This document shows, in pieces, positions 5,510 through 64,000 of a DNA stretch of 64,000 nt. The notes below the pieces were generated by a model, which saw nothing but the letters and a program-made list of their open reading frames with translations, did not search any database and was not told the DNA's origin. The first letter of the stretch is position 1, and each line of letters begins with the position of its first letter. This DNA is from Candidatus Adlerbacteria bacterium (GTDB lineage: Bacteria > Patescibacteriota > Minisyncoccia > Phycocordibacterales > SBAW01). The translations under genes were made by a program, and so were the position numbers. Location: positions 11,571 to 75,570 of the forward strand of contig CAWCNA010000013.1 of NCBI GenBank assembly GCA_963796795.1, in the 5' to 3' direction.

Positions 5510-5962
5510 ATGAGCATTATTCCCCATTTATATAAAAAGTATGTCCGAGGAACGGCCAAAAAAGCTATCGTGCAGTCGGTAACAGTCCTATTGTGTCATC
5601 TTACTGCAACCGTAATGAAAGGAGTAGGATCTTCTTGCCAGAAAATCTACATCAGTACGCGTGTGTTGAAACATATTTATGACAAACGACCTGCAGAAGA
5701 ATTTGATTTTTGTCTGGAGCACGTGATGAGCACAGTCCGCTACCCCAACCGCGTATATAAAAACAAAGGTGGCAAGCGAGGGGCCTATATTTTTGTAAAA
5801 GATGTACAGAATTCTCAATGTTTGGTATCTGTGGAAACAGTGACGGATGCAAATGGAAACGCCACACATTGTGAGGTGGCTACATTCTTCCGCCCCTCTG
5901 AAGGATACCTAAATAGTTACGAACTTTTGTGGGAGTGGAAGGATGGCACCCCTTCATCGTAA
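5510..5962 (+). CDS. Hypothetical protein, 150 aa, orphan plus-strand gene
   Basis: Long ORF in an otherwise minus-strand block with no recognisable family. His- and Lys-rich core 'LKHIYDKRPAEEFDFCLEHV...KGGKRGAYIFVK'. Confidence 0.3.
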   Translation: MSIIPHLYKKYVRGTAKKAIVQSVTVLLCHLTATVMKGVGSSCQKIYISTRVLKHIYDKRPAEEFDFCLEHVMSTVRYPNRVYKNKGGKRGAYIFVKDVQNSQCLVSVETVTDANGNATHCEVATFFRPSEGYLNSYELLWEWKDGTPSS

Positions 5963-6157
5963 TGCTTTCGATTCTGGTGTAACCCAGCCTAATTGCATCC
6001 CGCAGTAGAGCCTTTCTGCTTTTCACCCCCGCAAAAGACCGCAACCTATTCCGTTATAAATATACAGTGATGGTACTTTATTTTATGCAGGTTGTCCACA
6101 CTTCTCGATGACGTATATAATACTCTTTTCTTCCCAAAGAAAACGTGAATTTAACAT

Positions 6158-46122: not shown

Positions 46123-46183
46123 ATAGGGAGCATTGTAGCAGAAGTGCCTTTTTGCACCAAAGAACAGGTATACTCCTCTATAT

Positions 46184-46840
46184 ATGAAAACCGTCCTTAT
46201 AACCGGAACGAGTAGAGGTATAGGTAAAGCCCTTGCACATACATTTCTGGAAAAAGGCTATTTTGTCATTGGAACTTCCAGAGAAGAAAAAGCGCTACAC
46301 GAACACCCCAATTTTCTCCTTCTGCAGCTTGATTTGTTTGATCCAAAAAGTATTGAGCGATGTGTTTCTGACATAGAACGGAGCGGGAAAAAGCTTGAAA
46401 TACTGGTTAATAACGCAGCCGTTGGTTCAAACGAACAGGACGACTCGGTCATGCACCCCGACGCCCTACGCAGAACGCTTGAAGTGAACGTTATTGGAAC
46501 GGCAGATTTTACCGAGCAAATTCTTCCCTTTATAGAAGAAGGTGGTCATATCGTAAATGTTTCTTCTCGCGGAGGCTCATTAGGAAATCTTCATAACACA
46601 AATCATGCGGAATATAGAATTTCCAAAGCCGCACTCAACATGATTACAAGATTGTTGGCCGTGCGCCTCGCGGGGAAAATTACCGTCTCATCAATACATC
46701 CAGGTTGGGTCCGAACTGACATGGGAGGAAACGATGCGGATCTATTACCCGAAGATGCAGCGGAATCTTTGTTCACGTTTGCAACATCCCACGTCGAATC
46801 AGGGCAGTTCTGGTATAACGGAGAAAAAATTCCTTGGTAA
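46184..46840 (+). CDS. Short-chain dehydrogenase/reductase (SDR)
   Basis: 'ITGTSRGIGKA' Rossmann motif, 'NNAA', and catalytic 'YRISKAAL'. Confidence 0.8.
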   Translation: MKTVLITGTSRGIGKALAHTFLEKGYFVIGTSREEKALHEHPNFLLLQLDLFDPKSIERCVSDIERSGKKLEILVNNAAVGSNEQDDSVMHPDALRRTLEVNVIGTADFTEQILPFIEEGGHIVNVSSRGGSLGNLHNTNHAEYRISKAALNMITRLLAVRLAGKITVSSIHPGWVRTDMGGNDADLLPEDAAESLFTFATSHVESGQFWYNGEKIPW

Positions 46841-46845
46841 AAGAA

Positions 46846-46880
46846 AAGCCGTCCACACTCCAGTTGGAGAGGGACGGCTT
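46846..46880 (-). terminator. Rho-independent terminator for the minus-strand ORFs at 46886..47453
   Basis: AAGCCGTCC-(17 nt loop)-GGACGGCTT gives a 9-10 bp stem. On the minus strand the stem is followed by TTTTCTTTT. Confidence 0.5.
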
Positions 46881-46885
46881 CAAGT

Positions 46886-47453
46886 CTAATCCCTTGGGAT
46901 ATCCACGAACACCACCTTGCGAAGGAGCGTGTCGTGCGGCAGATAGAATGCCCAGGGCTTCAAGTAGTCCGGGGCGGGAGCATAGGTCTCCTTGACCATC
47001 CGCAGCCGCTGTGGGCCAGCCTGTTCGGTCTGCAGCCACGCATCCCAGAATGGAAAGAGGCTTGGACTGAGGTCCGCGGGAGCGTCGCCCGGCTTCTGGC
47101 ACAGCCCGTCGCTTCTGTTCCAGCGGCAAACCCCCCAGGCCTTCCGTTCGGTGTCGGCGAACTCGAGAATCATTTCCTGGATGGTAAACAAGTTGTAAGC
47201 CACCAGGCCATGGACTGCGCGCCTTTGCCAAGTCGGGTGTCCCACTGCGGGATTGATTGCCGACTCAGCCGCAGTCTTTCAGAGGAACGCCCACATCAGA
47301 AAATTCGAAGGAGATAGGCGTGTAGGGATCGGGGGGTACCCGTACCTGTTCGATGGTTTTCGTCCAGTCCTCCTCCTTGCCGTGACGGCGGATGAGAAAC
47401 GTCCCACCAAGGGCATCTTGCTCAGCTTGAATCGTGTCTCGAAGGTCGGCCAT
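46886..47453 (-). CDS. Two small hypothetical ORFs (62 aa and 119 aa), possibly one gene, in a GC-rich islet
   Basis: ORFs 47265..47453 and 46886..47245, 19 nt apart. Their GC (~57-60 %) is clearly higher than the flanking glycan genes (~40-48 %). No recognisable domain. Confidence 0.3.
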
Positions 47454-47593
47454 GGGCGTCCCCCTGTTCTATCGCTACAAACCCTGTAGCTGGGTACTTA
47501 ATCTACTTGCAGGCTACAACATATCTTAACTTTTGTCTGTATGGTCATCAAAGAACCCTTTCACCATAGAGAACGGTTATACTTCCTATACAC

Positions 47594-48851
47594 ATGTTTA
47601 CCGCTGCAAAACAACGCCTATACGATTTTTTACGTTGGACAGAGAGATATACCAAGACAGATATGGTGCATTTTGTATGGAGCAATATATGGATGAATCT
47701 TGGCAGGATTATCGCGCTGGCTACAGGCCTGATACTAACCACTGCGTTCGCTAACCTTCTTTCGCCACAATTGTTCGGTACCTACCAATACGTCATTGCC
47801 GCAGCAAGCGTCGTTGGTGCATTCACTCTTAACAACATGAGCGGGGCGGTCATGCGCGCCGTAGCGCAGGGCAAACAACATGTGGTGCCCGCAGTCGTCC
47901 GTGCCATGATGCGCTGGAGCGTGCCGGCAAGTATCGTGAGCGCCGGCATAGGCGTTTATTACTTATTCCATGGCAATACGACGCTCGGCTACGGCTTCCT
48001 GTTTATTGCGGTGTTCAATGTCACCGCCAACGGGTATGGCCTGTCAAAATCGGTCATCATTGCAAAACAAGATTTTAAAAATTCCTTTGTCGTCGGCACT
48101 ATACGGAGTATGTTCCCTATCGTTGTCATAGTGGCAACTTTATTTTCTGACCAAAAATCTTGTTTGGATATTGTTCGCATACTTTTTCTCCAACGCATTT
48201 GGGGCGTGGGCACAATATATTTGGGCCCTCCGTCACTTTAAGATTAAAGGATCAAACGAGGATGTTAAAGAAACTGTTACGTTCGGCAAACATTTGAGTA
48301 TCATCGGTTTTTTCCTTATCGCGAGCGGACAGATAGACCAGATACTACTCTTCCATTTTTCAGGTGGCGCACAATTGGCAATTTATGCACTTGCCCTCAC
48401 GCCCGTGATGGAGGCACGAAATTTGCTGGACAATTTTCTTTCCATTCTCTTTCCAAAAATGGCAGCAAAGGATAAAGAGACAGCTCGTAAAACCATATCC
48501 TTACGCCTCAAACAACTTACCGTACTTGCAATCGTATTGACGCTTGCCTATATTCTGCTCGTTCCCATCCTATTTCACGTTTTGTTTCCTAAATACATAC
48601 CATCGATCTTAATCAGCCAAGTTCTTGCGCTTGTCATTCTTTTCGAGCCGCGCGGCGTTATTGATACCTACATAGTCGCACACGGAGAAATAAAGAAGCG
48701 CTACGTTGCAGTGCTCTCAAGCCAAGCAGTCGAGTTCGCGCTCTTCTGCGTCCTTATCCCTCTTTTTGGGCTCTGGGGAGCTGTGTGGGCTACAATACTT
48801 TCCGAAGCCGGCGCGTCCCTTTCGCTCTATTTGATTTATAAAACCTTATAG
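47594..48851 (+). CDS. wzx: Polysaccharide biosynthesis flippase (Wzx-like), apparent frameshift near 48171-48241
   Basis: Two overlapping ORFs, 47594..48241 and 48171..48851. Together they give about 420 aa with about 12 TM helices, typical of PF01943. Confidence 0.65.
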
Positions 48852-48852
48852 T

Positions 48853-49754
48853 ATGAGAAAAAATATTGTTATATCAAAACTCATCGGAGGCTTAGGTAAT
48901 CAAATGTTTCAATACGCATTCGCACGCGCTCTTGCGGAAAAAAATGCAGCGACATTGGCATTAGATATTTCTTGTTACGGCACAACATTTAATGCCTACG
49001 GTTTTCATCTATCCAACTTTGACATACAGGCAGAATATGCGTTCGAAAAAGAGATTACGTCCTTACGGAAACACAAAAGAAGAAATGGTACTCTGGGTAA
49101 ATTTCTCAATCTTTTTTTTGCTGATCCAAAAAAATATGTAGTGGAAAGAATGCAGACGTACGATCCTCATATGCTCGAACTCACACCTCCATGCTACGTC
49201 GAAGGCTATTGGCTCTCAGAAAAATATTTCATCGATAGTGCAGAAACCATACGGAGTGAATTTTCTCTCCAAACACCCTTGGGTGATTATTCAAAAATAA
49301 TAGCCGCACAGATTACATCGTCTCCTGAATCTATCGCGATCCATATCCGCCAAGGATTTGCGAAAGATATTGAACGCACGAAACAAAAAGACATCTCCCA
49401 CGTTTCCTGCTCCGTTGACTATTACACGGAAGCCATACGCATCATGAACGAACGAGTTCCCGGAGCATCTTATTTTATTTTTTTCCTGATGATGTCGAAT
49501 GGGCGAAACAACATATACAAACGGGCCGGCCGACAGTGTTCATTGGGCAAGGCTCAAGTAAGGATTATGAGGACCTTGAGCTGATGCGCCTCTGTACCCA
49601 CCATATTATTTCAAACAGTACGTTTGGCTGGTGGGCGGCATGGCTCTCCAAGCATGAAAAGGAATCGGTTACGATTGCCCCTAAAAAATGGACTACAAAA
49701 CCCTTTGATACCAAAGATCTTATTCCTGAACGCTGGATAACCCTTCCATATTAA
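48853..49754 (+). CDS. GT11 alpha-1,2-fucosyltransferase-like glycosyltransferase, frameshift at a T7 tract (~49476)
   Basis: N-terminal 'KLIGGLGNQMFQYAFARAL' is the GT11 motif I. The C-terminal part continues in ORF 49536..49754 ('HHIISNSTFGWWAAWL', GT11 motif). The break is at 'tttatttttttcc'. Confidence 0.7.
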
Positions 49755-49763
49755 TAGCCAGCG

Positions 49764-50516
49764 CTATTTCTTTTTTCCAAGAATTTTATTCCCAAGTTTT
49801 ATCAATGGAAGTGGAATCTTCCATATGAGCGGCACAATTTTATTCCATCGGCTTTCATAGTAAGTGTATATCTGCGGATGTACGAGTGCCAAAGCTTTGT
49901 CGTGGCCTATTTTAATTTCTTCTGCAAGTTTTGGATAGTTTGAAAGCTCACTTTCCTTTACATAAAACATAACGTTCTGCGCGTAGAAAAACGCAACGCG
50001 TGCGTCGCTCCATACGCGATGGCGCAGGCAATCGACAGGCACGTATCCTTGCTCCTTAAATCTCTCTTCCCAGTATGCCGGCCATTGCTCATTTATATGA
50101 TGCACTCCTTGTTGGCCAGGTATCGCCGCAGAAAATAAAATAACGGGTGCGGCATCTGTGAGATTTTTTACAAACGTTCGTGATGCCACATCCGAGAGAT
50201 GCTCCCCCACTTCGAGTGAAACTACGAGGTCGAATGTTCTTCCAAAAGTTAGTGGCTGTTCCAAATTAGCGCCGATAAATTTTTCCTTCGGGATAGAAAG
50301 TTTCTCTTTATCGACATACTCGCCGTCGTACCCGACAACATCTTCAATGCCGGTTTCCATAAAGGCCTTGAGCCACAGCCCCTGCCCGCATCCAATATCG
50401 AGTACTGATTTTGCTTGCACAAACTGCAGAGCAAGCGGAGCGACTACGCGGGCAGAGGAAAGATTGGCATCCTCCATGCCTGCAAAAAACGAGCCTGAAT
50501 AAAATGCTTCTGCCAT
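49764..50516 (-). CDS. Class I SAM-dependent methyltransferase
   Basis: 'VLDIGCGQGLW' motif I. 250 aa. Confidence 0.7.
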   Translation of the reverse strand: MAEAFYSGSFFAGMEDANLSSARVVAPLALQFVQAKSVLDIGCGQGLWLKAFMETGIEDVVGYDGEYVDKEKLSIPKEKFIGANLEQPLTFGRTFDLVVSLEVGEHLSDVASRTFVKNLTDAAPVILFSAAIPGQQGVHHINEQWPAYWEERFKEQGYVPVDCLRHRVWSDARVAFFYAQNVMFYVKESELSNYPKLAEEIKIGHDKALALVHPQIYTYYESRWNKIVPLIWKIPLPLIKLGNKILGKKK

Positions 50517-50576: not shown

Positions 50577-52037
50577 ATGAGTTTTGTCGAACTGCGATTC
50601 CTTATTTTCTTCCCGACCGTCGTTGCATTGTTTTTACTGCTTCCCTACCGCTTCCGTTGGATTTTGTTGCTTATTTCAAGCTACATCTTTTATATGGCCT
50701 TCAAGCCGTCGTATGGCTTGTTACTTGCCGCAATAACGCTCATCGACTTCTTTGCAGGCTTAGCGATGAAAAATGAAATGAGGCCCCAGTATCGCAAGCT
50801 CTATCTTCTTTTAAGCCTTACGGCAAATCTCGGAATACTTTTTGTATTTAAATATTTCAACTTTTTCTTCGACTCGCTTGAGCATGTACTCCAGTTTGTA
50901 GGACATCCACAAACATTTCCAGCACTCTCAATCCTTTTACCTATCGGTATTTCATTCCACGTATTTCAAAGTTTAAGTTACACGATAGAGGTGTACAGGA
51001 AAAAATACGAACCGGTAACGCACCTGGGCAAGTTCGCTTTGTACGTAAGTTTCTTCCCACAATTAGCGGCGGGCCCCATTGAGCGACCACAAGGGCTGCT
51101 GACACAAATAATGGAAGGCCGCCCGTTCAATCTCGAACAGGCACAGAGCGGCCTGCGGCTCATGATGTGGGGATATTTTAAAAAACTTATGATTGCGGAC
51201 ACGCTGGCACCATTCATAAATAATGTGTATGGAAACCCAGGCGCGTATCCCGGGCCGACGTACATACTCGCGACCATGATGTTTGCGTACCAAATTTACT
51301 GCGACTTCTCGGGATATACCGATATCGCGCGAGGTGCCGCCCGCGTGTTCGGATATGAACTTGTTCTTAACTTCAACCGCCCCTTCCACGCCACATCAAT
51401 GGCAGACTTCTGGCGACGCTGGCATATCTCACTTTCGAGCTGGCTACGCGACTATCTCTATACACCGCTCGTATTTTCTGGAAAACGCATCACACAGACC
51501 CGCATATATTGGAGCCTGTTCATCACATTCGTATTAATAGGACTGTGGCACGGTGCCAACTGGACGTATGTACTCTTTGGCGCACTCCATGGAATATATC
51601 TCGTTGGAGAATTAGTGCTTACCGGTCCCGCACGCAAGTTCCCGCTTGCTGTCCCTCTATTTATAAAACGCATCACAGTATTTCTGCTCGTTTGTTTTTC
51701 ATATATCTTTTTCCGCGCTCCAACTGTTAGCGAAGCGTTTTCTATCGTCAAAGGACTCGGTAGTGAATGGCAGATATTTGTATCCAATCTCGCATCCAAT
51801 GCCGGACGCTTGCATGTACTCGCAATGGATATCGGGTGGAAGGGTTTGGCAATAGGACTTTCTTCAGTGTGCGTACTTGAAGTGGTGGAAGTGCTACACG
51901 AACGCGTGCCATTTGGTGAGAGGTTTGCATATACACCGGCCGTGGTTCGCGCAGTTTTGTATGCAGGCATCATTTCGATAATTTTACTGTTTGGAGCACT
52001 CGGCAACAGCCAGCAATTTATCTATTTCCAGTTCTAG
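50577..52037 (+). CDS. MBOAT-family membrane-bound O-acyltransferase (AlgI/DltB-like)
   Basis: 486 aa, multipass. Conserved His region 'FWRRWHISLSSWLRDYLYTPL'. Confidence 0.85.
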   Translation: MSFVELRFLIFFPTVVALFLLLPYRFRWILLLISSYIFYMAFKPSYGLLLAAITLIDFFAGLAMKNEMRPQYRKLYLLLSLTANLGILFVFKYFNFFFDSLEHVLQFVGHPQTFPALSILLPIGISFHVFQSLSYTIEVYRKKYEPVTHLGKFALYVSFFPQLAAGPIERPQGLLTQIMEGRPFNLEQAQSGLRLMMWGYFKKLMIADTLAPFINNVYGNPGAYPGPTYILATMMFAYQIYCDFSGYTDIARGAARVFGYELVLNFNRPFHATSMADFWRRWHISLSSWLRDYLYTPLVFSGKRITQTRIYWSLFITFVLIGLWHGANWTYVLFGALHGIYLVGELVLTGPARKFPLAVPLFIKRITVFLLVCFSYIFFRAPTVSEAFSIVKGLGSEWQIFVSNLASNAGRLHVLAMDIGWKGLAIGLSSVCVLEVVEVLHERVPFGERFAYTPAVVRAVLYAGIISIILLFGALGNSQQFIYFQF

Positions 52038-52059
52038 GACAACACACTATACTGGCAGC

Positions 52060-52389
52060 ATGCGCGGCATCGGTATAGACATGACACCCGTGGCTCGTAT
52101 GGAAGCCGCCCTCACTAATACCCAGTTTATGGCTAATACATTTACGGATATTGAACAAACCTACTGCAATTCATACAAAGATGCCGCGGTGCATTTTGCG
52201 GGGACATTTGCCGCAAAAGAAGCGGTGAGGAAAGCGACCAGCCTCTATCCAAAACTCAACGAAGTGGAAATACGGCGCACGGCTGAAGGCAAACCTGAGG
52301 TATGGATACAGGGCGCGCTGGAGTCATCACTGCTGATTTCTATAACACACACAGCAACTGATGCATGTGCTATAGCAATAGCGCAATAG
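52060..52389 (+). CDS. acpS: Holo-ACP synthase (4'-phosphopantetheinyl transferase, AcpS type)
   Basis: 'MRGIGIDMTPVARMEAAL...FTDIEQTYC...HFAGTFAAKEAVRKA...EVEIRRTAEGKPEV' follows the AcpS pattern. Confidence 0.7.
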   Translation: MRGIGIDMTPVARMEAALTNTQFMANTFTDIEQTYCNSYKDAAVHFAGTFAAKEAVRKATSLYPKLNEVEIRRTAEGKPEVWIQGALESSLLISITHTATDACAIAIAQ

Positions 52390-52440
52390 TTCGATATGAC
52401 TCACTACAAGTAATTATGTCTGAAATTAAAAAAATGTATC

Positions 52441-53460
52441 GTGCTCGACCTCGACAACACCCTTTGGGGCGGTGTTGTAGGAGAAGATGGTAAGGACGGA
52501 ATTTTGCTTTCCATTGATGAAAAAGGAGAAGCGTTTATTGCATTCCAACAAGCACTGCGCGACCTGTACGACCGCGGCATCATACTCGCGATAAACAGCA
52601 AAAATAATCCGGAGGATGCACTGGAGGTTATCCGCACACACCCAAACATGCTTTTGAAGGAGCCTCATTTCGCAGCAATGCGCATCAACTGGAATGACAA
52701 GGTGGACAATATGCGCGAACTCGCCGAAGAGTTAAATATTGGTCTCGACTCGATGGTGTTTCTCGACGACAGTGCGCTGCAGCGCGAGGCAGTAAAATCG
52801 GCACTTCCTGAAGTTGCAGTGCCGGACATGCCACAGGACCCCCGCGATTATACGCAGATGCTCTTGTCGCTCCCCTACTTCAATTCCAATACCCTGACCG
52901 ATGAGGACAAGATGCGCGGGAATTTTTATGTAACCGAACGCCTTCGTGCAAAAGCTGAAGGCCGCTTTGAAAACCGCGAGGCCTTTTTGGAAAGCCTTGG
53001 CCTACAGGTACGGGTAGTTCGCAATGACACGAATGCCATTTCGCGTATTTCACAACTGACTGGAAAAACAAATCAATTTAATACAAATAAAATTCCAAAA
53101 ACTGAAGAGGAAATTGCCGCATATATGGAGAGTGAGAATACGGACGTGTGGTATGCACAAGCCTCAGACCGCTTTGGCGACCACGGGATTATCGCGGTTG
53201 CCCTTCTACAAAAGAGCGGCGCCGTTTGGAATATAGAAACACTGCTGATGAGCTGCCGCGTGTTCGAGCGTGGTATTGAAGATGCATTTATATATGCCAT
53301 TGCAGAGGCAGCACAGGAGGAAGATGTGAGATCTATTGCATTTGATTTTGCACCGACCGAGAAAAACGATCCTGCTAAAACATTCTTAGACAACAAGACT
53401 ACAAATGGCATACTACAGGTACGGGACCAGAACCTGCCCCGCTGGATAACTCTTGTATAA
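52441..53460 (+). CDS. FkbH-like HAD-superfamily (subfamily IIIC) phosphatase / carrier-protein loading enzyme
   Basis: 'VLDLDNTLWGGVVGEDG' (HAD motif I, DxDxT) and 'ISQLTGKTNQFN' (FkbH hallmark). The likely true start is ATG 52416 ('MSEIKK'). An A7 tract at 52430-52436 causes a -1 frame offset relative to the expected 'MSEIKKCIVLDLDNT'. Confidence 0.75.
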   Translation: MLDLDNTLWGGVVGEDGKDGILLSIDEKGEAFIAFQQALRDLYDRGIILAINSKNNPEDALEVIRTHPNMLLKEPHFAAMRINWNDKVDNMRELAEELNIGLDSMVFLDDSALQREAVKSALPEVAVPDMPQDPRDYTQMLLSLPYFNSNTLTDEDKMRGNFYVTERLRAKAEGRFENREAFLESLGLQVRVVRNDTNAISRISQLTGKTNQFNTNKIPKTEEEIAAYMESENTDVWYAQASDRFGDHGIIAVALLQKSGAVWNIETLLMSCRVFERGIEDAFIYAIAEAAQEEDVRSIAFDFAPTEKNDPAKTFLDNKTTNGILQVRDQNLPRWITLV

Positions 53461-53463
53461 AAT

Positions 53464-53694
53464 ATGAAACAATTTGACGACATTGTGTACGAAATGCTGC
53501 GCATCGAGAAAGGTCCGAATATTGACGCCCTAACACCCAAGGATGTCCCGCACTGGGACTCCATGAACTACCTACTCTTTATTGCGGAGCTCGAAAAAGA
53601 ATACGGCGTTTCCTTCACCATGGACGAAGTACTCTCGGCTCAAAGCTTAGGCGATGTGCGTACGGCACTGCGAAACAAAGGCGCGAACGTATGA
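53464..53694 (+). CDS. Acyl/peptidyl carrier protein
   Basis: 76 aa. 'VPHWDSMNYLLFI' has the phosphopantetheine-attachment Ser in a D-S-L/M context. Confidence 0.75.
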   Translation: MKQFDDIVYEMLRIEKGPNIDALTPKDVPHWDSMNYLLFIAELEKEYGVSFTMDEVLSAQSLGDVRTALRNKGANV

Positions 53695-54131
53695 GTGACA
53701 TTCCAAAAGCTGCCGACCGAACATTTGAATCTATCCAGGTTGGCGAAACCTGCGTGCGGGAACGGATAATAACTGCCGAAGATATTGAAACGTTCGCCAA
53801 ACTCTCGGGCGATCATAATCCGCTGCATGTTGATGCAGCCTATGCGGCACAAACGCAATTTAAAAAACCCGTCGTACATGGCATGTTTCTCGGGGCGTTG
53901 GTTTCTGAACTAATCGGAATGCATCTGCCGGGGATGCGATGCCTGCTTGTAAAAGAAGCTCTTGAATTTAAATTGCCAGTTTTTGCCGGCGACACAGTCC
54001 GCATTGAGGGTGTCATCGTGCACAAAAGCGAAGCGGCAAAACTTCTTGAAATAAAAATAACAATTACTCGCGAGTTCGATACGGTTGTAGAAGGAGTGGT
54101 TCATACAAAAGTTTTACACCATGACGCCTAA
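53691..54131 (+). CDS. MaoC-like (R)-specific hot-dog dehydratase
   Basis: 'SGDHNPLHVD' and 'HGMFLGALVSELIG' are MaoC dehydratase motifs. Confidence 0.75.
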   Translation: MSDIPKAADRTFESIQVGETCVRERIITAEDIETFAKLSGDHNPLHVDAAYAAQTQFKKPVVHGMFLGALVSELIGMHLPGMRCLLVKEALEFKLPVFAGDTVRIEGVIVHKSEAAKLLEIKITITREFDTVVEGVVHTKVLHHDA

Positions 54132-54741
54132 TAAATACGCGCTTACAACTGGCGGTACAGGATATGTTGGTACTGCGGTCGTAGCAATGCTGATCAAAAA
54201 CGGTTTTGAGGTTGTTAACCTCGGCAGGAAGGAATGTAACCTGGCCGATCTAAAAAACGTATCTATCGTGGCAGAGAAAATTTTGAAGGAACGAGGCGCT
54301 CCCCAAGTTATTATCCATATGGCGTGCCCACCAACCACGCGTAAGGCGCTGGAAGATACAACTGAGGAAGAAAAAGCTACTGAATTTACAATTGCAGTAG
54401 ATATAGCGCGAGTGCTTGGTGAAATATTTTTGCCACATATGGCACCCGGTTCGAGCTTTATTGGGATTACAACCGCCTCGCTCGACAAGGCAGAACCGGA
54501 AAAAAACATCGGTGCATATATCCCAGCAAAGGCCGCATTGCGTTCACTTCAAAAAAAGCTCGCGGAAGATTGGGGCGACAAAGGCATACATGTGTATGAT
54601 GTCGCCCCAACGTTCTTGCCTGGCGGGTTAAATAAGGACCTACCAGAAGGCGTCCTCAACCTCCTTGCACGCCAGAAAGACGGTACCGTGCCCACCGCAG
54701 AAAGTGTGGCAAATACAATAGAAAAGCTTATTACGGGGTAA
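54121..54741 (+). CDS. SDR-family oxidoreductase (ketoreductase-like)
   Basis: 'TGGTGYVGTAV' Rossmann motif and 'YIPAKAAL' catalytic YxxxK. Confidence 0.7.
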   Translation: MTPNKYALTTGGTGYVGTAVVAMLIKNGFEVVNLGRKECNLADLKNVSIVAEKILKERGAPQVIIHMACPPTTRKALEDTTEEEKATEFTIAVDIARVLGEIFLPHMAPGSSFIGITTASLDKAEPEKNIGAYIPAKAALRSLQKKLAEDWGDKGIHVYDVAPTFLPGGLNKDLPEGVLNLLARQKDGTVPTAESVANTIEKLITG

Positions 54742-54781
54742 CTTTTATACTCCGCCTCGAGTCATATATACTGAAACCACA

Positions 54782-56533
54782 ATGTGCGGCATCATCAGTA
54801 TAATTGGAAAAGGTGCCGTAGAGGCCTCGCTTGAGGAGGCTATTGCGACACTTAAACATCGCGGGCCCGACAGCCACGGCTCCATGCAATTTGATGGCGC
54901 AGCGCTCGGACATACGCGCCTGGCTATTATCGACCTCTCGCCCTCGGGGCATCAGCCGATGCGCGATAATGCAAAAAATATTGCTATCACTTTTAATGGT
55001 GAAATCTACAACTACAAAGAGCTGCGTGCCGAACTTGAGGCAAAGGGGCACACATTTTCTACGCCTTCAGATACAGAAGTAATTTTAAAAGCGTACGAGG
55101 AGTATGGCAGCGAGTGCCCAAAAAAGTTGGACGGCATGTTCGCGTTTGTTATCTGGGATGATGAGAAAAAAGAAGCTTTTATGGCACGCGACCGCTTTGG
55201 CAAGAAACCTCTTTTCTATGCACATACGCCTGATGGAAAATTGGTTGCGGGTTCGGAGATAAAAGCGCTCAAGGCAGCTGGCGTACAACCAGAAATTGAC
55301 CCCCAAGGTATTGATGCGTATTTAACTCTTATGTATGTGCCACCGTGGCGTACGGTATATAAAAACGTGCACGTGATACTCCCCGGACACTCTGCAACGT
55401 ATAAAGACGGAAAACTTGAAACAAATATCTATTGGCAGCTTGAACGTAAACCTATTTCGATATCATATGAGGATGCAAAAAAAGAACTGCGCCGACTTTT
55501 TGCACAGTCGGTCAAAAAGCGCATGGTTGCCGATGTTGAAGTGGGCGCTTTTCTCTCCGGCGGCGTTGATTCAACCTTGGTTACTGCATACGCACAAAAG
55601 ATTTCTTCAAAACCCATACAAACATTTTCGCTCGGGTATGGAGATCTAATAAACGAGCTTCCATTCGCGCAGGAAGCCGCTGACACATTGAAAACAAATC
55701 ATCATACACTCCAGGCAAGCGGCGACCTTATCCATGAATTAGAAGCTTCACTCTCATATTTTGACGAGCCCCATGGTGACACCGCATCATTCCCCCAACA
55801 TATGCTCTCGCGGGAAACGGCAAAAAGCGTCAAGGTCGCGCTTTCAGGCGAAGGCGGCGACGAGATGTTCCTTGGCTACGGTCGATATTTTTCGTACTGG
55901 CACACCAACAAGCTGTCACGGCTTAGAAATATGCTGTTCTCAAATCAATACAAAGATTTTCTAAAACAAAGTACTGTCTTCCCTCTTTCTTTGCGGAAAG
56001 ATTTACAAAAAGACACTTCGAATCTTTGGACTGAACCCATGGATACCATGGTTCAGGGTTTCAAGGGCACGACGCTTGAGCGCATGGACCTCTTCGATCT
56101 CACGACTCATATGCCCGGGATGTTACTCACCAAAGTGGACGAAATGGGCATGATGCATGGACTCGAAATTCGCTGTCCGTTTCTGGATTATGAACTTGCG
56201 GAGTTTGCGTTCAATCTGCCCCTCGAATATAAGACCAACGGGAGTACCGGGAAAATCATTTTAAAAGATCTTCTAGCAGAAATTATGCCGCGTGAGTTCG
56301 TCGATAGAAAAAAACAGGGTTTTGGTGCGCCAGTACGAAAATGGCTGCAGGAACCCGCGCTGCGCACATATGTCGAAAAGATCTTCAAAGATGCACGAGT
56401 CTACCAGTATCTCGACGCCGCTCGTGTTCAGGCATTTATCAAAAAAACCTACGCAAGCCAAAAACCAAAAGCCTACTATCAGCTCTGGACCTTGCTGTGC
56501 CTCGAGATTTGGCTAAAGAAACATGACTATTAG
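54782..56533 (+). CDS. Asparagine synthetase B-type glutamine amidotransferase
   Basis: N-terminal nucleophile 'MCGIISI'. PP-loop 'GAFLSGGVDSTLV'. 583 aa. Confidence 0.9.
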   Translation: MCGIISIIGKGAVEASLEEAIATLKHRGPDSHGSMQFDGAALGHTRLAIIDLSPSGHQPMRDNAKNIAITFNGEIYNYKELRAELEAKGHTFSTPSDTEVILKAYEEYGSECPKKLDGMFAFVIWDDEKKEAFMARDRFGKKPLFYAHTPDGKLVAGSEIKALKAAGVQPEIDPQGIDAYLTLMYVPPWRTVYKNVHVILPGHSATYKDGKLETNIYWQLERKPISISYEDAKKELRRLFAQSVKKRMVADVEVGAFLSGGVDSTLVTAYAQKISSKPIQTFSLGYGDLINELPFAQEAADTLKTNHHTLQASGDLIHELEASLSYFDEPHGDTASFPQHMLSRETAKSVKVALSGEGGDEMFLGYGRYFSYWHTNKLSRLRNMLFSNQYKDFLKQSTVFPLSLRKDLQKDTSNLWTEPMDTMVQGFKGTTLERMDLFDLTTHMPGMLLTKVDEMGMMHGLEIRCPFLDYELAEFAFNLPLEYKTNGSTGKIILKDLLAEIMPREFVDRKKQGFGAPVRKWLQEPALRTYVEKIFKDARVYQYLDAARVQAFIKKTYASQKPKAYYQLWTLLCLEIWLKKHDY

Positions 56534-57659
56534 GGAATTTTTTAACCGTTTACTTTTCCGCCTGCAAGGAAGGGTAATACATCTCAAACCTAAGGGGCCA
56601 GTGAAAGGCCGAGTGCTTTTTTCCTATATCACACACTCATTCTTGCGGCCAGGGCCATGGGATAGCCATACCAATTACTGGGAAGGGCGGAACATGGTTG
56701 AAGCATTTGTCGAGCGTGGATATGCCGTTGATGTTATTGACTCAACAAATCAAACATTCCTTCCAAAAAAACACTATGATTTTTTTATCGATAACGCGGT
56801 AAACATGGAAAGGCTCACTCCCCTGCTAAACCAAGACTGCATAAAGATATTTCATATTACAAACGCTGAACCGCGCTTCCAAAACGCTGCAGAGAGAACA
56901 CGTGCTGAGGATCTAAAAAAACGTCGCGGTATTGTACTTGCCCCTGACCGCACAATCGCGGAAGTCCGTACGGTGAAGCTTGCCGAGTATACAACGGCAC
57001 TTGGTAACAAATTTACTATTGATACCTATGCGTACGCACACAAGCCTATGACGCGCATTCCAATATCTTCAACCCATACTTTTCCCTCTCCAGAACATAA
57101 AAATTTTGATGCCGTACAAAAACAGTTTGTATGGATAGGCGGCGCAGGTCCCCTCCACAAAGGTTTGGATCTCGTACTGGAAGCATTCGCCACTATGCCG
57201 GACTATAAACTTGTTGTATGCGTCAAATTGGGGGCTGATACAGCATTCGCTCGCGCATTCGCGACAGAGTTATATCAAACACCCAATATTAAAACTTTGG
57301 GGTTTATCGACCATGGAAGTGAGCAGTTCAAAAAACTCTGCAATGAATCACTTGGTATTATCTCTGTCTCGTGTGCAGAAGGCGGAGGCGGTAGTACCAT
57401 CCTTGGAATGCACGCGGGGCTTATACCGATTGTTAATTACGAAACATCCGTGGATGTCGAAGACTTCGGCCTTTTGCTGCCCGACTCACACATCGAGACG
57501 ATACAACGCTCCATCCGTGAAGTTTCTTCATTACCAAAAGAAGCATTACAGTCGAAGGCGGTTGCCGCATGGAACTATGCACGCGAGAACCATACCCGCG
57601 AGCGATTTGCAAAGCACTACAGACTATTCTTAGATACACTTTTAGAACACCATGACTGA
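56523..57659 (+). CDS. Glycosyltransferase (GT-B fold, GT4-like)
   Basis: 378 aa. The C-terminal half 'VWIGGAGPLHKGLDLVLEAF...EGGGGSTILGMHAGLIPIV' is a retaining GT-B C-domain. Confidence 0.55.
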   Translation: MTIREFFNRLLFRLQGRVIHLKPKGPVKGRVLFSYITHSFLRPGPWDSHTNYWEGRNMVEAFVERGYAVDVIDSTNQTFLPKKHYDFFIDNAVNMERLTPLLNQDCIKIFHITNAEPRFQNAAERTRAEDLKKRRGIVLAPDRTIAEVRTVKLAEYTTALGNKFTIDTYAYAHKPMTRIPISSTHTFPSPEHKNFDAVQKQFVWIGGAGPLHKGLDLVLEAFATMPDYKLVVCVKLGADTAFARAFATELYQTPNIKTLGFIDHGSEQFKKLCNESLGIISVSCAEGGGGSTILGMHAGLIPIVNYETSVDVEDFGLLLPDSHIETIQRSIREVSSLPKEALQSKAVAAWNYARENHTRERFAKHYRLFLDTLLEHHD

Positions 57660-58509
57660 ACAGGAACTTATATCCGTCGTCATACCCGTTTGGAATGAAA
57701 AGGATCGTATCGCGCGGGCGATTGAATCAATGCAGAATCAAACATGGAGAAACCTAGAGATTATTGTTGTGGACGATGGCTCGACCGACGGTACGCAGGA
57801 AATCGTCAAAGGAATTGCAAAGCAAGACCAGCGGGTTTCTTTTTATGACAATCCTCACAAAGTACCCCGCACCAACTGGCGCGGATACGATATCAACGCA
57901 GGATATGCTGCCCGCAATTATGGGTTCAGTATCGCCGAAGGTCAGTGGATAACGACCCAGGACGCGGATGATGCGTCTTTGTTAAATCGTATCGAGGTGC
58001 AGTACCAGCTGGCAAAAAAATACAACGCCACAATGGTAACTGTTAGCTATCAACGCCTGCGTCCGGAGATTTTGGATAAAAAACTTGATATTGGGAGAAT
58101 TTTTAAAGAAAAAGGAGAGGAACATGTCGTGATACGACCGGAAACTATTGTGACATTCACTAAAAAACAGCGAGGTATTTTGATGATCGAGCCCTTACAC
58201 AGATTTATCCCTTTCCCCATCAAATGGTTTCCATATACACGGAAGCTTTTCTATAGACATACCGATCCGTTTTTGGGCGCTGACAACTGTATGATGTTCA
58301 ATAGGAAGGTCATAGACGCGGGCGTTTATTTTAGAACTCGTAACCAGCGTACATGGGGCACGCCAAACGGCCGCGGCACCGGGCGTGATTTTGCCTACAA
58401 TGTAAGCATGAAATTTAAAAATAGCTGGTCATTCCGTCTGCCGCTGTATCTGTGGAACGCCAACTTGGAAAACCCAGACTATATAGGCTACGAAAAATAT
58501 TTGATATGA
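57652..58509 (+). CDS. Family 2 glycosyltransferase
   Basis: 'ISVVIPVWNEKDRIARAIESMQNQTWRNLEIIVVDDGSTDGT', 'QDADD'. Confidence 0.8.
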   Translation: MTEQELISVVIPVWNEKDRIARAIESMQNQTWRNLEIIVVDDGSTDGTQEIVKGIAKQDQRVSFYDNPHKVPRTNWRGYDINAGYAARNYGFSIAEGQWITTQDADDASLLNRIEVQYQLAKKYNATMVTVSYQRLRPEILDKKLDIGRIFKEKGEEHVVIRPETIVTFTKKQRGILMIEPLHRFIPFPIKWFPYTRKLFYRHTDPFLGADNCMMFNRKVIDAGVYFRTRNQRTWGTPNGRGTGRDFAYNVSMKFKNSWSFRLPLYLWNANLENPDYIGYEKYLI

Positions 58510-59405
58510 AATTTTCTATCATCACACCCGCATACGACATAGCAAAGTGGCTACCCACGACGATAGAGAGCGTGCTCGATCAAGCAGGAGATTTTTCTAT
58601 TGAATATATTTTGGTTATCAATGACTCACTGGACGACACTCTCAAAATCGCACAAACATATAAGCAAAGGGTTGAATCTAGTGAATATCCAATACACTGC
58701 AAAAATATTTCGATGCAGATTATTGAAGCCGAAAAGCCACAGGGCATGTATGTCGCTATCAATGAAGGGTTTGCAAAAGCGACTGGTGATATTTTTGCAT
58801 GGATTGCAGGAGACGATATCTATAGGCCGGGCGCGTTTCAAGTAATGAACGAGGCATTTAGAGAATACCCTGATATCGGCTGGCTCAAAGGTATCACTAC
58901 CACTATCGGGGAACACGGCGAGCTTATACGAGGAAGCACCTCGAGCATCTATCATCAAGACTGGTTACGTTTGGGGGTATATGGGATGGAGTCATACCAT
59001 GTCGAGCAAGACAGTAATTTTTGGCGTGCGAGTGTATGGAAAAAGGTGGGCAATTTCCCCTCCTATTTCAAGAGCGCGGGCGACTACTGGCTCTGGATAC
59101 AGATGGCAAAATATGCCCGTTTATGGAGCATAAACGCCTCTATAAGCGCTTTTCGCAAGCGCGAAGGCCAAGATAGCCGTGCAAATCACAGCAGGCTAAT
59201 TGCGCAGAAAAAGGCGGCTCGGCCAAAACGCCCCCTTCGCGCATGGATTCCCCGCCTGTTCTTTTACCCCTACTTCAATCTGCCGGCCCTTCAACCATCG
59301 TTACGGAAACTCTATCCGTATATCTTTTTCTATAAGTCGCGGACGTACCTTGAGAAAGAAAACGGTGTGTGGGTCAAAAAAACAATGCCGACCTTTTCTC
59401 TTTAG
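58506..59405 (+). CDS. Family 2 glycosyltransferase
   Basis: 'MKFSIITPAYDIAKWLPTTIESVLDQ', 'AGDD'. The start overlaps the previous stop (ATGA). Confidence 0.7.
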   Translation: MKFSIITPAYDIAKWLPTTIESVLDQAGDFSIEYILVINDSLDDTLKIAQTYKQRVESSEYPIHCKNISMQIIEAEKPQGMYVAINEGFAKATGDIFAWIAGDDIYRPGAFQVMNEAFREYPDIGWLKGITTTIGEHGELIRGSTSSIYHQDWLRLGVYGMESYHVEQDSNFWRASVWKKVGNFPSYFKSAGDYWLWIQMAKYARLWSINASISAFRKREGQDSRANHSRLIAQKKAARPKRPLRAWIPRLFFYPYFNLPALQPSLRKLYPYIFFYKSRTYLEKENGVWVKKTMPTFSL

Positions 59406-60047
59406 GATTTCTTCCGTGCCGCGACAAATACTCCCGCGGCTAACAATACGGGTACTACTTCGCTGCGCTTGATATCTCCGTATCGCTCAACGATAAGCGG
59501 GTCAAGTTTGTTTAAAATCAGAGCAAGTACGTACACCAAACCTTTTGTAAATTTTCCACCACGTAATTTTGTTTGAAACATAATACGCTGTAACAGTATG
59601 GCTATCGTGCTGAAGGCATCCCCTTCAACCCCCTCTTCGACGATATCGAAATCTTTAAGTACTGTCCTCAAACCATAAGGTGTGTATCTCCAATAGTCGT
59701 GTGGGGCATCGTGTACGGGAAAGTTAAAGCGCGTCGTAATAAGTAACAGTCCTCCAGGTTTCAAGATGCGGGCAATCTTCTGATGCGGCAAGAAATGGAT
59801 TATGGAAGTGCTCGAACGATTCCGCACATATCACAATATCAAATGAGGAATCCTCAAGTGGTAATGCATGTACGTCACCAACCACGTCAGGCTTCTTCTC
59901 CGCCGCAATATCAAGCGTTGTCACGTGAGGGAAAAAATCCTTCCACACACTTCGCGCACCAGCGCCAATATCGAGGACATACTTCGCGTCCGCATCCTTG
60001 TACGTTGTAAGAAATTTTTTTGCCTGCCAGTCGTTAAGTTTTCTCAT
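59402..60047 (-). CDS. Class I SAM-dependent methyltransferase, apparent frameshift near 59780
   Basis: ORF 59724..60047 has motif I 'VLDIGAGARS' and 'DIVICAESFEHF'. ORF 59402..59827 carries the rest ('ILKPGGLLLITT'). Confidence 0.6.
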
Positions 60048-63895: not shown

Positions 63896-64000
63896 CGTGG
63901 GCTTGGGTAATGTGGCGAGAGTCTTTGTCGTCTTCGCCAGCTCCTGTTTGGTGCCATAGCCGGGGACTCCACACTTTACTATGCGCGCACCTAGTAGTGT

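Follow-up and report, generated by a model that had tools for sequence, protein, structure and literature searches.

Does a glycan-assembly locus of a CPR bacterium build an acyl group on a carrier protein of its own, and if so, which enzyme would receive it? The DNA that raises this question, a stretch of 64,000 nucleotides referred to here as the window, comes from a CPR organism with an Adlerbacteria-like genome, and its nearest relatives are Candidatus Adlerbacteria MAGs. We favor, with a probability of roughly 60%, the reading that an acyl-donor cassette complete in itself is coupled in this locus to an MBOAT-SGNH system for export and transfer.

A seven-gene block in a glycan-assembly locus

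Genes for an MBOAT, ACPS, FkbH, ACP, MaoC, SDR and AsnB lie contiguously and head to tail on the plus strand within the glycan-assembly locus, all of them where the initial annotation had placed them. Profile matches confirmed the family assignments of all module genes, and the family-defining motifs are unbroken in all seven. The intergenic gaps range from -11 to +40 nt, and the seven genes are therefore likely to form a single operon. The block and its surroundings are as follows:

43810-46122, minus strand: Wzy_C+TPR protein (Pfam)
46184-46840: SDR (Pfam)
47594-48851: Wzx-type flippase, split (Pfam)
48853-49584: GT11 (Pfam)
49764-50516, minus strand: methyltransferase (Pfam)
50577-52037, plus strand: MBOAT, 486 aa, cassette-linked subtype (PF03062, E = 2.8e-22)
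52060-52389, plus strand: holo-ACP synthase (ACPS), an AcpS-type phosphopantetheinyl transferase, 109 aa (PF01648, 42 bits; TIGR00556, 56 bits)
52416-53460, plus strand: FkbH-type loader with HAD phosphatase and GNAT-fold domains (TIGR01686, TIGR01681)
53464-53694, plus strand: stand-alone acyl carrier protein (ACP), 76 aa (PF00550, 23.6 bits versus 20.8)
53691-54131, plus strand: MaoC hot-dog (R)-specific hydratase/dehydratase, 146 aa (PF01575, E = 1.3e-23)
54121-54741, plus strand: short-chain dehydrogenase/reductase (SDR), 206 aa (PF13561, PF00106)
54782-56533, plus strand: AsnB-type glutamine-dependent amidotransferase, 583 aa (TIGR01536, PF00733, PF13537)
56523-57659, plus strand: weak GT1-like gene, 378 aa (Pfam)
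57652-58509, plus strand: GT2 (Pfam)
58452-59405, plus strand: GT2 (Pfam)
61176-62276, plus strand: membrane-anchored SGNH-fold protein, 366 aa (AF2 model, pLDDT 94)
63182-64000, minus strand: AlgX/AlgJ-type SGNH-like protein, truncated at the end of the window (PF16822 ALGX, 29.3 bits versus 26.5)

In total, the flanks hold three GT2 genes, one GT4, one weak GT1-like gene, the Wzx-type flippase, the Wzy_C+TPR protein and two SGNH-type proteins. This agrees with the GT2 and GT4 transferases, Wzx flippase, O-antigen-ligase-like protein and two SGNH hydrolases recognized earlier, the ligase-like protein being the Wzy_C+TPR one and the flippase being broken into two ORFs (47594-48241 and 48171-48851). 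The upstream glycan region from 43810 to 50516 shows synteny with L001/L006.

Both SGNH-type proteins are candidate extracytoplasmic partners of the MBOAT. The model of the protein at 61176-62276 has an N-terminal TM helix (residues 2-30), and its fold is of the SGNH type, with TesA and acetyl-xylan esterases as matches; its G92, S94 and H343 are invariant, its homologues frequently match PF16822 ALGX, and the orthologue in L008 sits immediately 5' of the MBOAT. The ALGX-like protein that begins at 63182, 315 aa long in the independent assembly L130, is homologous to the same family (hhalign 91%).

The acyl-carrier cassette and the place of AsnB

The probable start of the ACPS is ATG 52060 rather than TTG 51991, giving a length of 109 aa as in its homologues. 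Homologues of 109-116 aa lie immediately upstream of FkbH in related loci, and the family is present in 26 loci. FkbH itself scores 292 bits against TIGR01686 (cutoff, 147), and its AF2 model combines an N-terminal domain matching 3slr, MDP-1 and KdsC with a C-terminal domain matching GNATs. The catalytic Asp residues, whose absence would have spoken against the initial assignment, are present as a pair in the motif DLDNT (52447-52455) along with the conserved Cys of the motif SCRV (53254-53256), and D11, D13 and C280 are invariant among 12 homologues. The carrier protein likewise has the phosphopantetheine Ser ascribed to it, as Ser33 in the motif WDSM (53560-53562). The extended motif WDSMNYLxFIxxLEK is conserved across cassette ACPs, with its WDS core found also in the ACP of an operon on Sinorhizobium meliloti pSymB, and among solved structures the nearest is that of a putative ACP (2lml). 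MaoC carries the hydratase-2 motif SGDHNPLH (Asp41, His46), and the SDR carries the motifs TGGTGYVG and YIPAK.

In the window, the ATG at 52416 that relatives conserve as the FkbH start falls out of frame owing to a run of A7 (52428-52434) in place of their A6. The sole in-frame start, GTG 52441, drops eight N-terminal residues, including the invariant K5, K6 and C7. Together with the split flippase, this +1 frameshift might mean that the module is an inactive, decaying remnant in this organism. We consider that very improbable, since the rest of the module genes are intact, the FkbH residues are conserved, and the essential SecA (39911-42305) is fragmented in the window as well. Moreover, comparison with an independent assembly of the same organism over 8.9 kb shows a single difference from the window, a 1-nt indel that restores a gene other than FkbH. 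Indel errors are the simpler explanation, and the frameshifts in the window therefore seem to be errors of assembly, not signs of pseudogenes.

Across 39 related loci, the conserved unit consists of five genes, ACPS-FkbH-ACP-MaoC-SDR, whose order is kept in nearly all; MaoC follows ACP in 27 loci and the SDR follows MaoC in 33. Conservation of the neighborhood thus extends to this cassette and, in 22 of the 39 loci, to an adjacent MBOAT, but AsnB, counted as part of the module in the initial annotation, occurs 3' of the SDR only in the window and its close clade (L044, L006, L007, L008 and L045/L046). AsnB, c28, c11 and c15 occur in the same order in L006 and the window; in L007 and L008, c15 or c58 comes after the retained AsnB, c28 and c11. 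The glycan-assembly block at 56523-59405 travels with AsnB. We conclude that AsnB probably stands outside the acyl module and performs a separate step, the amidation of a glycan carboxylate such as that of a uronic acid.

Were AsnB integral to the module, a carboxylate would be adenylated and an amide formed with or on the ACP-derived acid, giving an amide-linked rather than an ester-linked substituent. AsnB homologues do amidate thioester-bound diacids, as in the malonamyl starter unit (OxyD), and the window protein scores 490 bits against TIGR01536 (cutoff, 267) with its glutaminase Cys2 intact. Such a role would also fit the position of the gene immediately 3' of the SDR, with a 40-nt gap in the window, in all loci of the close clade, and, in L024 and L032, its adjacency to a second MBOAT. 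However, more than 30 other loci with the five-gene cassette lack AsnB, as does the S. meliloti operon, and the gene moves with the downstream glycosyltransferase block. Furthermore, none of the cassette enzymes would generate a second carboxylate, and uronic-acid amidation is the usual assignment for AsnB homologues in glycan loci. Integration of AsnB into the module thus appears very improbable.

Two types of MBOAT and the proposed consumer of the carrier-bound acyl group

The window MBOAT has its catalytic His325 in the motif WHG (51549-51551) and terminates in FIYFQF, an acyl-shuttle Tyr motif with Tyr483 at 52023-52025. All intact C-termini of these MBOATs end in FXYXXF or a close variant, the motif shown to act as an acyl-Tyr shuttle in PatA and DltX (PMC12148441). 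With FXYXXF fused, the protein has the architecture of PatA/AlgI and is not a DltB, its score against TIGR04091 (DltB) being 148 bits, under the cutoff of 375.

In 17 loci, the MBOAT lies directly 3' of the SDR or MaoC, and in 11 of the MBOAT loci the next gene encodes a c8 protein (∼385 aa). This family and c38, both defined here by clustering, are found 3' of the MBOAT in two clades and are homologous (hhalign 94%); c38, which adjoins the MBOAT in L007, L008 and L045, is absent from the window. In an NJ tree, the MBOATs of the window clade do not form the sister group of the post-SDR MBOAT clade, and they neighbor the cassette only where relatives are close and syntenic (MBOAT identity of 59% or more). 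Some one-third of the cassettes lack an MBOAT altogether. In eight loci, the cassette occurs instead with a cytoplasmic AAC(3)-like N-acyltransferase (PF02522, 130 bits), accompanied by the nonulosonic-acid genes NeuB/DegT and usually by a Cj1295-like DUF4910 protein. An MBOAT and an AAC(3)-like transferase were found together in none of the 39 related loci, the pattern expected if the two were alternative consumers of the same acyl-ACP.

The at least eight MBOAT-free loci with an AAC(3)-like gene could also point to two systems that merely lie side by side. The cassette would then acylate an amino or nucleotide sugar in the cytoplasm through an unrecognized transferase, for example the 378-aa GT1-like protein, and the MBOAT and SGNH proteins would carry out acetyl-CoA-dependent O-acetylation in the manner of PatA/PatB or AlgI/AlgJ. 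Dense CPR glycan islands make adjacency alone weak evidence, and generic MBOATs with 38-48% identity to that of the window almost never have a cassette nearby. According to the one mechanistic paper found, MBOATs with the fused motif use acyl-CoA/acetyl-CoA as the donor and no carrier protein (PMC12148441), a statement which we counted against a carrier-fed enzyme.

What argues against two separate systems is a set of twelve positions, several of them near the catalytic His, which are near-invariant as TYSEFINSWTAW in ∼70 unlinked MBOATs and are replaced in both cassette-linked clades by V/I-F-A-D-L-Y/T-S-I-F-V-S-F/Y. The window MBOAT reads VFADLTSIFVSY and matches the generic residues at 0 of 12 positions. 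These positions were chosen after the fact; among sequences left out of the choice, generic matches numbered 0 in L044 and L045b, 4 and 3 in L076a and L076b (MBOATs adjoining ACP and ACPS), 6 in L122 (adjoining FkbH-ACP-MaoC) and 1 of 12 in the S. meliloti operon. The replacement set is thus common to the window, post-cassette MBOATs of other lineages and S. meliloti. Because each of L022 and L045 has two MBOATs, one generic and one of the linked type that lies beside the cassette, the signature is not simply a CPR lineage marker. It could mark specificity for the acyl group or the acceptor rather than carrier use, and it is not clearly shared with DltB, the sole proven carrier-dependent MBOAT.

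Pfam/profile annotation of the window's glycan locus found no acyltransferase-like gene besides the MBOAT, and no amino-sugar aminotransferase was found there. Given these results and the mutual exclusion of MBOAT and AAC(3), we regard two independent systems as unlikely. The proposal that the MBOAT is fed by the FkbH-loaded carrier protein, already made in the initial annotation, is instead supported by comparative evidence, since MBOAT adjacency recurs, AAC(3) never co-occurs, and the signature tracks ACP/FkbH linkage, including that in the held-out S. meliloti operon; the transfer itself we infer.

Proposed pathway and comparison with known systems

For the carrier-fed MBOAT, we infer the chemical steps, the hand-over from ACP, the acyl group (lactyl, or glyceryl) and the acceptor as follows. 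The dedicated phosphopantetheinyl transferase would turn the 76-aa carrier protein into its holo form, and FkbH, by means of its HAD and GNAT-fold domains, would use 1,3-bisphosphoglycerate to place a glyceryl unit on it. MaoC could then strip the 3-OH to yield the enol of pyruvoyl-S-ACP, which the SDR would reduce to lactyl-S-ACP; alternatively, the glyceryl group might be handed on unchanged. At the cytoplasmic face, the MBOAT would take the acyl group from the phosphopantetheine arm of the carrier and transfer it to its own Tyr483 at the outer face, from where one or both SGNH proteins may shift it to a hydroxyl of the glycan, presumably the product of the GT, Wzx and Wzy-like genes of the locus. 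AsnB would act separately, probably in amidating a carboxylate in this glycan.

A GAPDH gene is located in the same window (6158-7216), which we counted in favor of a proposal that uses 1,3-bisphosphoglycerate. Counted against it were the frameshifted FkbH start, the missing c38 and the MBOAT-free third of cassettes, as well as the rarity, to our knowledge, of ester-linked lactyl groups on bacterial glycans. If the proposal is true, a carrier-borne three-carbon hydroxy-acyl group derived from a glycolytic intermediate reaches an acyltransferase in the membrane, which decorates a sugar polymer of the surface.

The same conversion of glyceryl to lactyl has been proposed in trans-AT polyketide synthases, for loading modules of the type DH-KR-FkbH-ACP. 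The combination of an FkbH-loaded carrier with an MBOAT had initially been considered undescribed in a CPR-type organism. We found no description of it in the literature searched, but the S. meliloti pSymB operon encodes an MBOAT, a 409-aa unknown protein, an ACP and FkbH and adjoins rkpR/KPS export genes, and the MBOAT-ACP-FkbH system is therefore not CPR specific. An association of FkbH with glycan loci is already known from Campylobacter jejuni, where the FkbH-domain gene cj1302 is annotated in the flagellin-glycan locus (PMC7099621) and di-O-methylglyceroyl-pseudaminic acid occurs (PMC7099621, PMC3068675); we counted both in favor of the proposal.

Gene content and integrity of the cluster

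Profile searches confirmed all seven genes that the initial annotation had placed at 50577-56533, together with their family assignments. The genes are contiguous on the plus strand, and the window proteins matched each of the five models named for the domain check (PF03062, PF01648, TIGR01686, PF00550 and PF01575).

Genes of the cluster, in order, and their flanks (scores are given against the model cutoff)
50577-52037, plus strand: MBOAT; PF03062, E = 2.8e-22, 79.9 bits against 27
plus strand: AcpS-type phosphopantetheinyl transferase (ACPS); PF01648 and TIGR00556
plus strand: FkbH; TIGR01686, 292 bits against 146.65; TIGR01681, 66.5 against 35.75
plus strand: ACP, 76 aa; PF00550, 23.6 bits against 20.8; Ser33 in WDSM
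plus strand: MaoC hot-dog dehydratase; PF01575; SGDHNPLH motif
plus strand: SDR, 206 aa; profile match
54782-56533, plus strand: AsnB-type amidotransferase; TIGR01536, 489.6 bits against 267.1; PF00733, E = 1.1e-90; begins MCGI (Cys2 nucleophile)
flanks: Wzy_C+TPR protein, Wzx-type flippase, GT11, three GT2, GT4, methyltransferase, two SGNH-type proteins

Since the gaps between the seven genes are short, ranging from an 11-nt overlap to 40 nt, the cluster fits a single operon; a consensus promoter and terminator scan of the window showed no enrichment and did not help to define the transcription unit. Neither the Rfam scan nor the tRNA scan of the window gave a hit. The closest relatives are Candidatus Adlerbacteria and other Patescibacteria MAGs, and the CPR assignment of the window therefore holds.

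The catalytic histidine of the MBOAT (H325, in GLWHGANW) was 100% conserved in all aligned groups. In FkbH, for which a Pfam profile search returned no matching model, HAD motif I (DxDxT) and the acidic motif IV are present as LDLDNTLWGG and FLDDS. The catalytic aspartates, on which the initial annotation had made its FkbH proposal depend, are in place: D11, D13, D117 and D118 are invariant among 12 homologues, as is C280 in MSCRVFERG. An AF2 model of FkbH (pLDDT 78) consists of a HAD domain matching 3slr, MDP-1 and KdsC and a C-terminal domain with a GNAT fold, which matches GNAT acyltransferases and carries the invariant cysteine of SCRVFERG. From work on OzmB, the conserved cysteine of the C-terminal domain is reportedly the site of the glyceryl-S-enzyme intermediate. 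Loading of a glyceryl unit from 1,3-bisphosphoglycerate onto a cognate ACP is the function of this family and, by analogy, would be that of the window enzyme. The ACP serine belongs to the D-S motif with which helix 2 begins, and WDS(33)M is kept in the cassette ACPs of 28 loci.

The conserved FkbH start codon (ATG at 52416) is out of frame in the window, where positions 52428-52434 form an A7 run; the close relatives L044 and L006 have A6 at this place. The additional A is probably an assembly indel, although it may instead mark a real frameshift or slippage site. Other genes are broken as well: the flippase (47594-48851) is in two pieces, SecA (39911-42305, minus strand) is divided among no fewer than three ORFs, which overlap and differ in frame, and the methyltransferase gene (59402-60047, minus strand) is split, with an indel near 59781. 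The breakage of SecA and the flippase points to frequent indel errors in this assembly. In L130, a second and independent assembly of this organism, the methyltransferase gene is intact (214 aa), and over 8.9 kb (99.989% identity) one 1-nt indel is all that separates L130 from the window; we therefore read the split genes as assembly errors rather than gene decay.

Elsewhere in the window, a run of very large ORFs (7587-33462, minus strand), reaching 3594 aa, includes some with Bact_surface_Ig-like domains and mostly ones with no Pfam match. These ORFs probably belong to a single giant surface protein or a small number of them, and indels may have broken them up. Between 18 and 26 kb the GC skew is strongly positive. 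At 2500-2997 (minus strand) and 5510-5962 (plus strand) lie a type IV pilin-like protein whose N terminus carries a methylation motif and a weak, below-cutoff match to a PBECR3 phage-barnase/EndoU-like nuclease domain.

Conservation of the cassette and its acyltransferase neighbours

A search with the FkbH protein returned more than 5,000 relatives and 38 genome loci, nearly all of them from CPR bacteria. For 39 related loci (L006-L043 and L004, some fetched by exact look-up), we searched the ORFs with the window proteins and clustered all neighbouring genes. The conserved unit across these loci comprises five genes in a fixed order: ACPS, FkbH, ACP, MaoC and SDR. Looking up the exact sequence of MaoC from the window gave zero matches.

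Conservation across CPR genomes thus extends to the five-gene cassette and stops short of AsnB, which the initial annotation had counted as a member of the module. Only the window and the clade closest to it (L044, L006, L007, L008 and L045/L046) have AsnB after SDR. Because it is missing from more than 30 other cassettes and travels with the same downstream glycosyltransferase block, we place it outside the module. AsnB proteins of glycan loci usually amidate a sugar carboxylate, and by analogy this is the likeliest role of the window protein. In two related loci, L024 (841-4175) and L032 (126-3510), an overlapping AsnB/MBOAT pair lies on the opposite strand, ∼5 to 6 kb from the cassette. Both loci also have an MBOAT after SDR, and the pair represents a second recurring association of the two genes.

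The neighbours of the cassette fell into two classes, MBOAT and AAC(3)-like, which never occurred together in the 39 loci. An MBOAT was present in 22, directly after SDR or MaoC in 17 of them, and in the window clade it sits directly upstream of the cassette. The next gene after the MBOAT in 11 loci encodes a ∼385-aa membrane protein with weak GDSL and DUF1574 matches (family c8 of our clustering); the related family c38 (hhalign, 94%) lies between MBOAT and ACPS in L007, L008 and L045. Eight loci (L009, L010, L012 [e.g., 12359-14460], L016, L017, L036, L041 and L004) have no MBOAT, and all eight carry an AAC(3)-like N-acyltransferase (PF02522, 130 bits), accompanied by NeuB and DegT and, in most, by a Cj1295-like DUF4910/DUF2172/HTH_47 protein (359 bits for DUF4910/DUF2172). 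The full ACPS-FkbH-ACP-MaoC-SDR set is present in seven of these eight; L036 has only ACPS, FkbH and ACP.

A swap of this kind would be expected if the two enzymes drew alternatively on one acyl-ACP. The AAC(3)-like enzyme would act on nitrogen in the cytoplasm, and the MBOAT on oxygen outside the membrane. No other acyltransferase-like gene was found in the window locus.

A signature of linked MBOATs and an operon in S. meliloti

Scanning metagenomes with the window MBOAT yielded 80 loci, whose MBOATs were 38-88% identical to it. The cassette was confined to the closest of them (at least 59% MBOAT identity), the remaining loci holding ordinary MBOATs with no ACP or FkbH genes; generic MBOATs on Bacillus and Leptospira plasmids likewise had no ACP nearby. 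We aligned 25 linked MBOATs, that is, those near an FkbH/ACP cassette, with 74 unlinked ones. Among 141 columns conserved in the unlinked proteins, 12 were replaced in both linked clades (window positions 129, 270, 272, 277, 290, 296, 313, 321, 334, 368, 375 and 376), giving an empirical signature that was derived in this analysis after the fact and has no published definition. At these positions generic MBOATs read, near-invariantly, TYSEFINSWTAW; linked MBOATs read V/I-F-A-D-L-Y/T-S-I-F-V-S-F/Y, and the window MBOAT reads VFADLTSIFVSY, with 0/12 generic residues. Three of the positions (313, 321 and 334) are no more than 12 residues from the catalytic His325, and the other nine are at least 29 residues away in sequence.

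Since the positions had been picked post hoc, we checked sequences from outside the selection. Generic residues numbered 0 of 12 in L044 and L045b, 1 in an S. meliloti MBOAT, 4 and 3 in the two MBOATs of L076, which adjoin ACP and ACPS genes, and 6 in that of L122, which adjoins FkbH-ACP-MaoC; the MBOATs of L052 and L090, whose linkage is doubtful, had 12. On L076, a 9-kb metagenome contig with no FkbH, both MBOATs are of the linked type and form two tandem pairs with c8 partners (1228-7195), divergently adjacent to the ACP and ACPS genes.

A signature of this kind could merely mark the CPR lineage. We rejected this explanation because two CPR loci, L022 and L045, each hold one generic MBOAT (L022a and L045a) and one of the linked type, the latter adjoining the cassette; the S. 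meliloti MBOAT is also of the linked type. That the signature marks carrier-protein use in general is unsupported as well: DltB was intermediate and did not clearly share it, so what the signature reflects may be the acyl group and not the carrier. In a neighbor-joining tree the two linked clades were not sisters, which would reflect either convergence or poor deep resolution of the tree.

When plasmids were searched by tblastn with FkbH as the query, an operon came to light on S. meliloti pSymB, beside rkpR and the KPS export genes.

L127 8033-13068 (CP140955.1 1048481-1053516): S. meliloti operon; MBOAT, 409-aa protein, ACP and FkbH, in this order

As in the window, the three key components share one operon, here beside capsule (rkpR) export genes, the MBOAT (522 aa, C-terminal FLYQGF) has the linked-type signature, and the ACP (VPQWDSLS) has the common VPxWDS motif. 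The S. meliloti operon differs in having no MaoC, SDR, ACPS or AsnB, in its long-form FkbH of 628 aa and in its partner protein: the 409-aa product, probably wrongly annotated as a "TonB-dependent receptor," had no similarity to c8, c38 or the SGNH family detectable by hhalign. This operon is an independent, cross-phylum case of the MBOAT-ACP-FkbH trio, and we found no characterisation of it in the literature searched. Because S. meliloti is genetically tractable and has the operon next to its capsule export genes, the coupling idea is directly testable. For more distant plasmid homologues of FkbH, linkage to an MBOAT was rejected, those of Methylosinus, Ralstonia, C. perfringens and Erwinia lying in PKS/small-molecule clusters.

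The central idea of the initial annotation, that a carrier protein feeds the MBOAT, thus gains good comparative support from the frequency of MBOATs beside the cassette, their mutual exclusion with AAC(3)-like genes, the MBOAT signature and the S. meliloti trio, and we regard this coupling as rather probable. Other parts of the picture changed: AsnB drops out of the module, the pSymB operon shows that the system is not specific to CPR bacteria, and an FkbH gene had already been annotated in another glycan locus, that of Campylobacter discussed below.

Proposed acyl route and comparison with known systems

The window MBOAT ends in QQFIYFQF, a fused FXYXXF motif, and all MBOATs of the linked set with an intact C terminus end in FXYXXF or a close variant. 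The tyrosine of this motif is the acyl shuttle in PatA and DltX, and the non-Dlt MBOAT-SGNH pathways draw on acyl-CoA, with no carrier protein involved (PMC12148441). The window MBOAT therefore combines the architecture of PatA and AlgI with a genomic tie to a carrier protein, as in Dlt.

Two SGNH-type proteins, neither adjacent to the MBOAT in the window, are candidate partners.

61176-62276: SGNH protein with an N-terminal TM helix
63182 onwards, running past the window end: ALGX-domain protein

The fold of the first is seen only in an AF2 model (pLDDT 94), which matches generic SGNH hydrolases rather than PatB, AlgJ or DltD specifically; Gly92, Ser94 and His343 are invariant. PDB sequence searches with the two proteins gave nothing significant. 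A GAPDH, the source of the 1,3-bisphosphoglycerate used by FkbH enzymes, is encoded at 6158-7216. It belongs to a central-carbon block (301-7216) that also includes a PfkB kinase, ribulose-phosphate 3-epimerase and a split transketolase (N-terminal part 3469-4326, C-terminal part 1512-2537).

FkbH would load glyceryl to give glyceryl-ACP, MaoC would dehydrate this to the enol of pyruvoyl-ACP, and SDR would reduce the enol to lactyl-ACP. We infer this chemistry entirely by analogy, and a C3 hydroxy acid is a reasoned guess for the acyl group. The boldest reading that fits the data, with a probability of roughly one half, is that these loci represent a widespread, unrecognised MBOAT-SGNH class whose acyl donor is an FkbH-loaded carrier protein instead of acyl-CoA. 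The donated group would be a C3 unit from glycolysis, either glyceryl or, once MaoC and SDR have acted, lactyl, and it would be placed as a hydroxy-acyl ester on surface glycans in CPR bacteria and in S. meliloti. In other loci this donor cassette would instead serve a cytoplasmic N-acyltransferase of the AAC(3)-like kind that modifies nonulosonic acids, and the 12-residue signature of the MBOATs would record the change of donor or of acyl group.

To our knowledge, Dlt is the only bacterial MBOAT pathway that uses a carrier protein, and in recent mechanistic papers every fused-motif MBOAT is taken to use acyl-CoA. In the literature searched we found no description of an FkbH/ACP-coupled MBOAT, in agreement with the novelty claimed initially. 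If correct, this reading would add a second carrier-dependent MBOAT class with another loader and another acyl group, and so widen cell-envelope acylation chemistry. It would explain why an ACP and an AcpS-type phosphopantetheinyl transferase are kept inside glycan islands of CPR bacteria, which, as far as we know, usually have no fatty-acid synthesis. It would also provide a sequence signature for predicting non-acetyl MBOATs, and the MBOAT-less cassettes would predict N-(C3-hydroxyacyl) nonulosonic acids in CPR bacteria.

In the Dlt system (DltA, DltC, DltB, DltX and DltD), which D-alanylates teichoic acids, the acyl group passes from a carrier-protein thioester via the MBOAT, an outer-face FXYXXF tyrosine and an SGNH-type protein to a cell-envelope polymer (PMC12148441). 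The window likewise has a carrier protein, an MBOAT, the FXYXXF motif and SGNH proteins. It differs in its putative loader, a HAD/GNAT protein of the FkbH type predicted to use a glycolytic intermediate, where Dlt has the adenylating ligase DltA, in its predicted acyl group, which is not D-alanine but a C3 hydroxy acid that MaoC and SDR would modify on the carrier, in the fusion of the tyrosine motif to the MBOAT rather than its placement on a DltX microprotein, and in having its own ACPS. No window ORF scanned matched the AMP-binding family of DltA-type ligases, and by analogy FkbH would take DltA's loader role. The window MBOAT is not a DltB equivalog (TIGR04091, 148.5 bits against a cutoff of 375) and aligns with the solved DltB at low identity, over residues 110-343 only. 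The carrier protein is not a member of the DltC family, and its use by the MBOAT is putative.

With PatA/PatB, AlgI/AlgJ/AlgX and WssH/WssI, the window shares an MBOAT of ∼480 to 490 aa whose C terminus has two additional helices and ends in FXYXXF, SGNH proteins of the membrane-anchored or AlgX type (in the window, candidate partners) and a polysaccharide-locus setting. Those systems, however, work with acetyl-CoA and without a carrier protein (PMC12148441). The window MBOAT has none of the 12 generic residues of the PatA/AlgI type, and carrier protein, phosphopantetheinyl transferase and loader lie directly downstream in the same probable operon.

The loader itself resembles the glyceryl-ACP synthases FkbH, OzmB and ZmaN in its family (TIGR01686), its DxDxT and SCRV motifs and its dedicated ACP. 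As in the DH-KR-FkbH-ACP loaders of polyketide synthases, of which that of BryA has been proposed to make lactyl starter units, FkbH is accompanied by a dehydratase and a reductase. A DH-MT-FkbH-ACP architecture is documented in OocJ (PMC4552970). Unlike PKS loading modules, the window has no ketosynthase or NRPS, its MaoC hot-dog and SDR proteins stand alone, and the predicted consumer is a glycan acyltransferase rather than an assembly line; the oxidation and methylation enzymes FkbK, FkbI and FkbG of FkbH-type pathways are absent as well.

The C. jejuni flagellin-glycosylation locus, where ACP genes are presumably present too, resembles the window in having an FkbH gene in a glycan locus. 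That gene, cj1302, is already annotated with an FkbH domain (PMC7099621), and aminopeptidase-like Cj1295 is needed there for di-O-methylglyceroyl-pseudaminic acid (PMC3068675), a glycan with a glycerate-derived acyl group. In C. jejuni, however, acylation takes place in the cytoplasm and joins the group to a nitrogen of a nonulosonic acid, without an MBOAT and with neither MaoC nor SDR reported, whereas the window has no NeuB, aminotransferase or AAC(3)-like gene. The C. jejuni arrangement is instead mirrored by the MBOAT-less CPR relatives, with their Cj1295-like DUF4910, AAC(3)-like and NeuB genes, and the comparison links the uncharacterised C. jejuni FkbH gene to a broader family of glycan-acylating cassettes.
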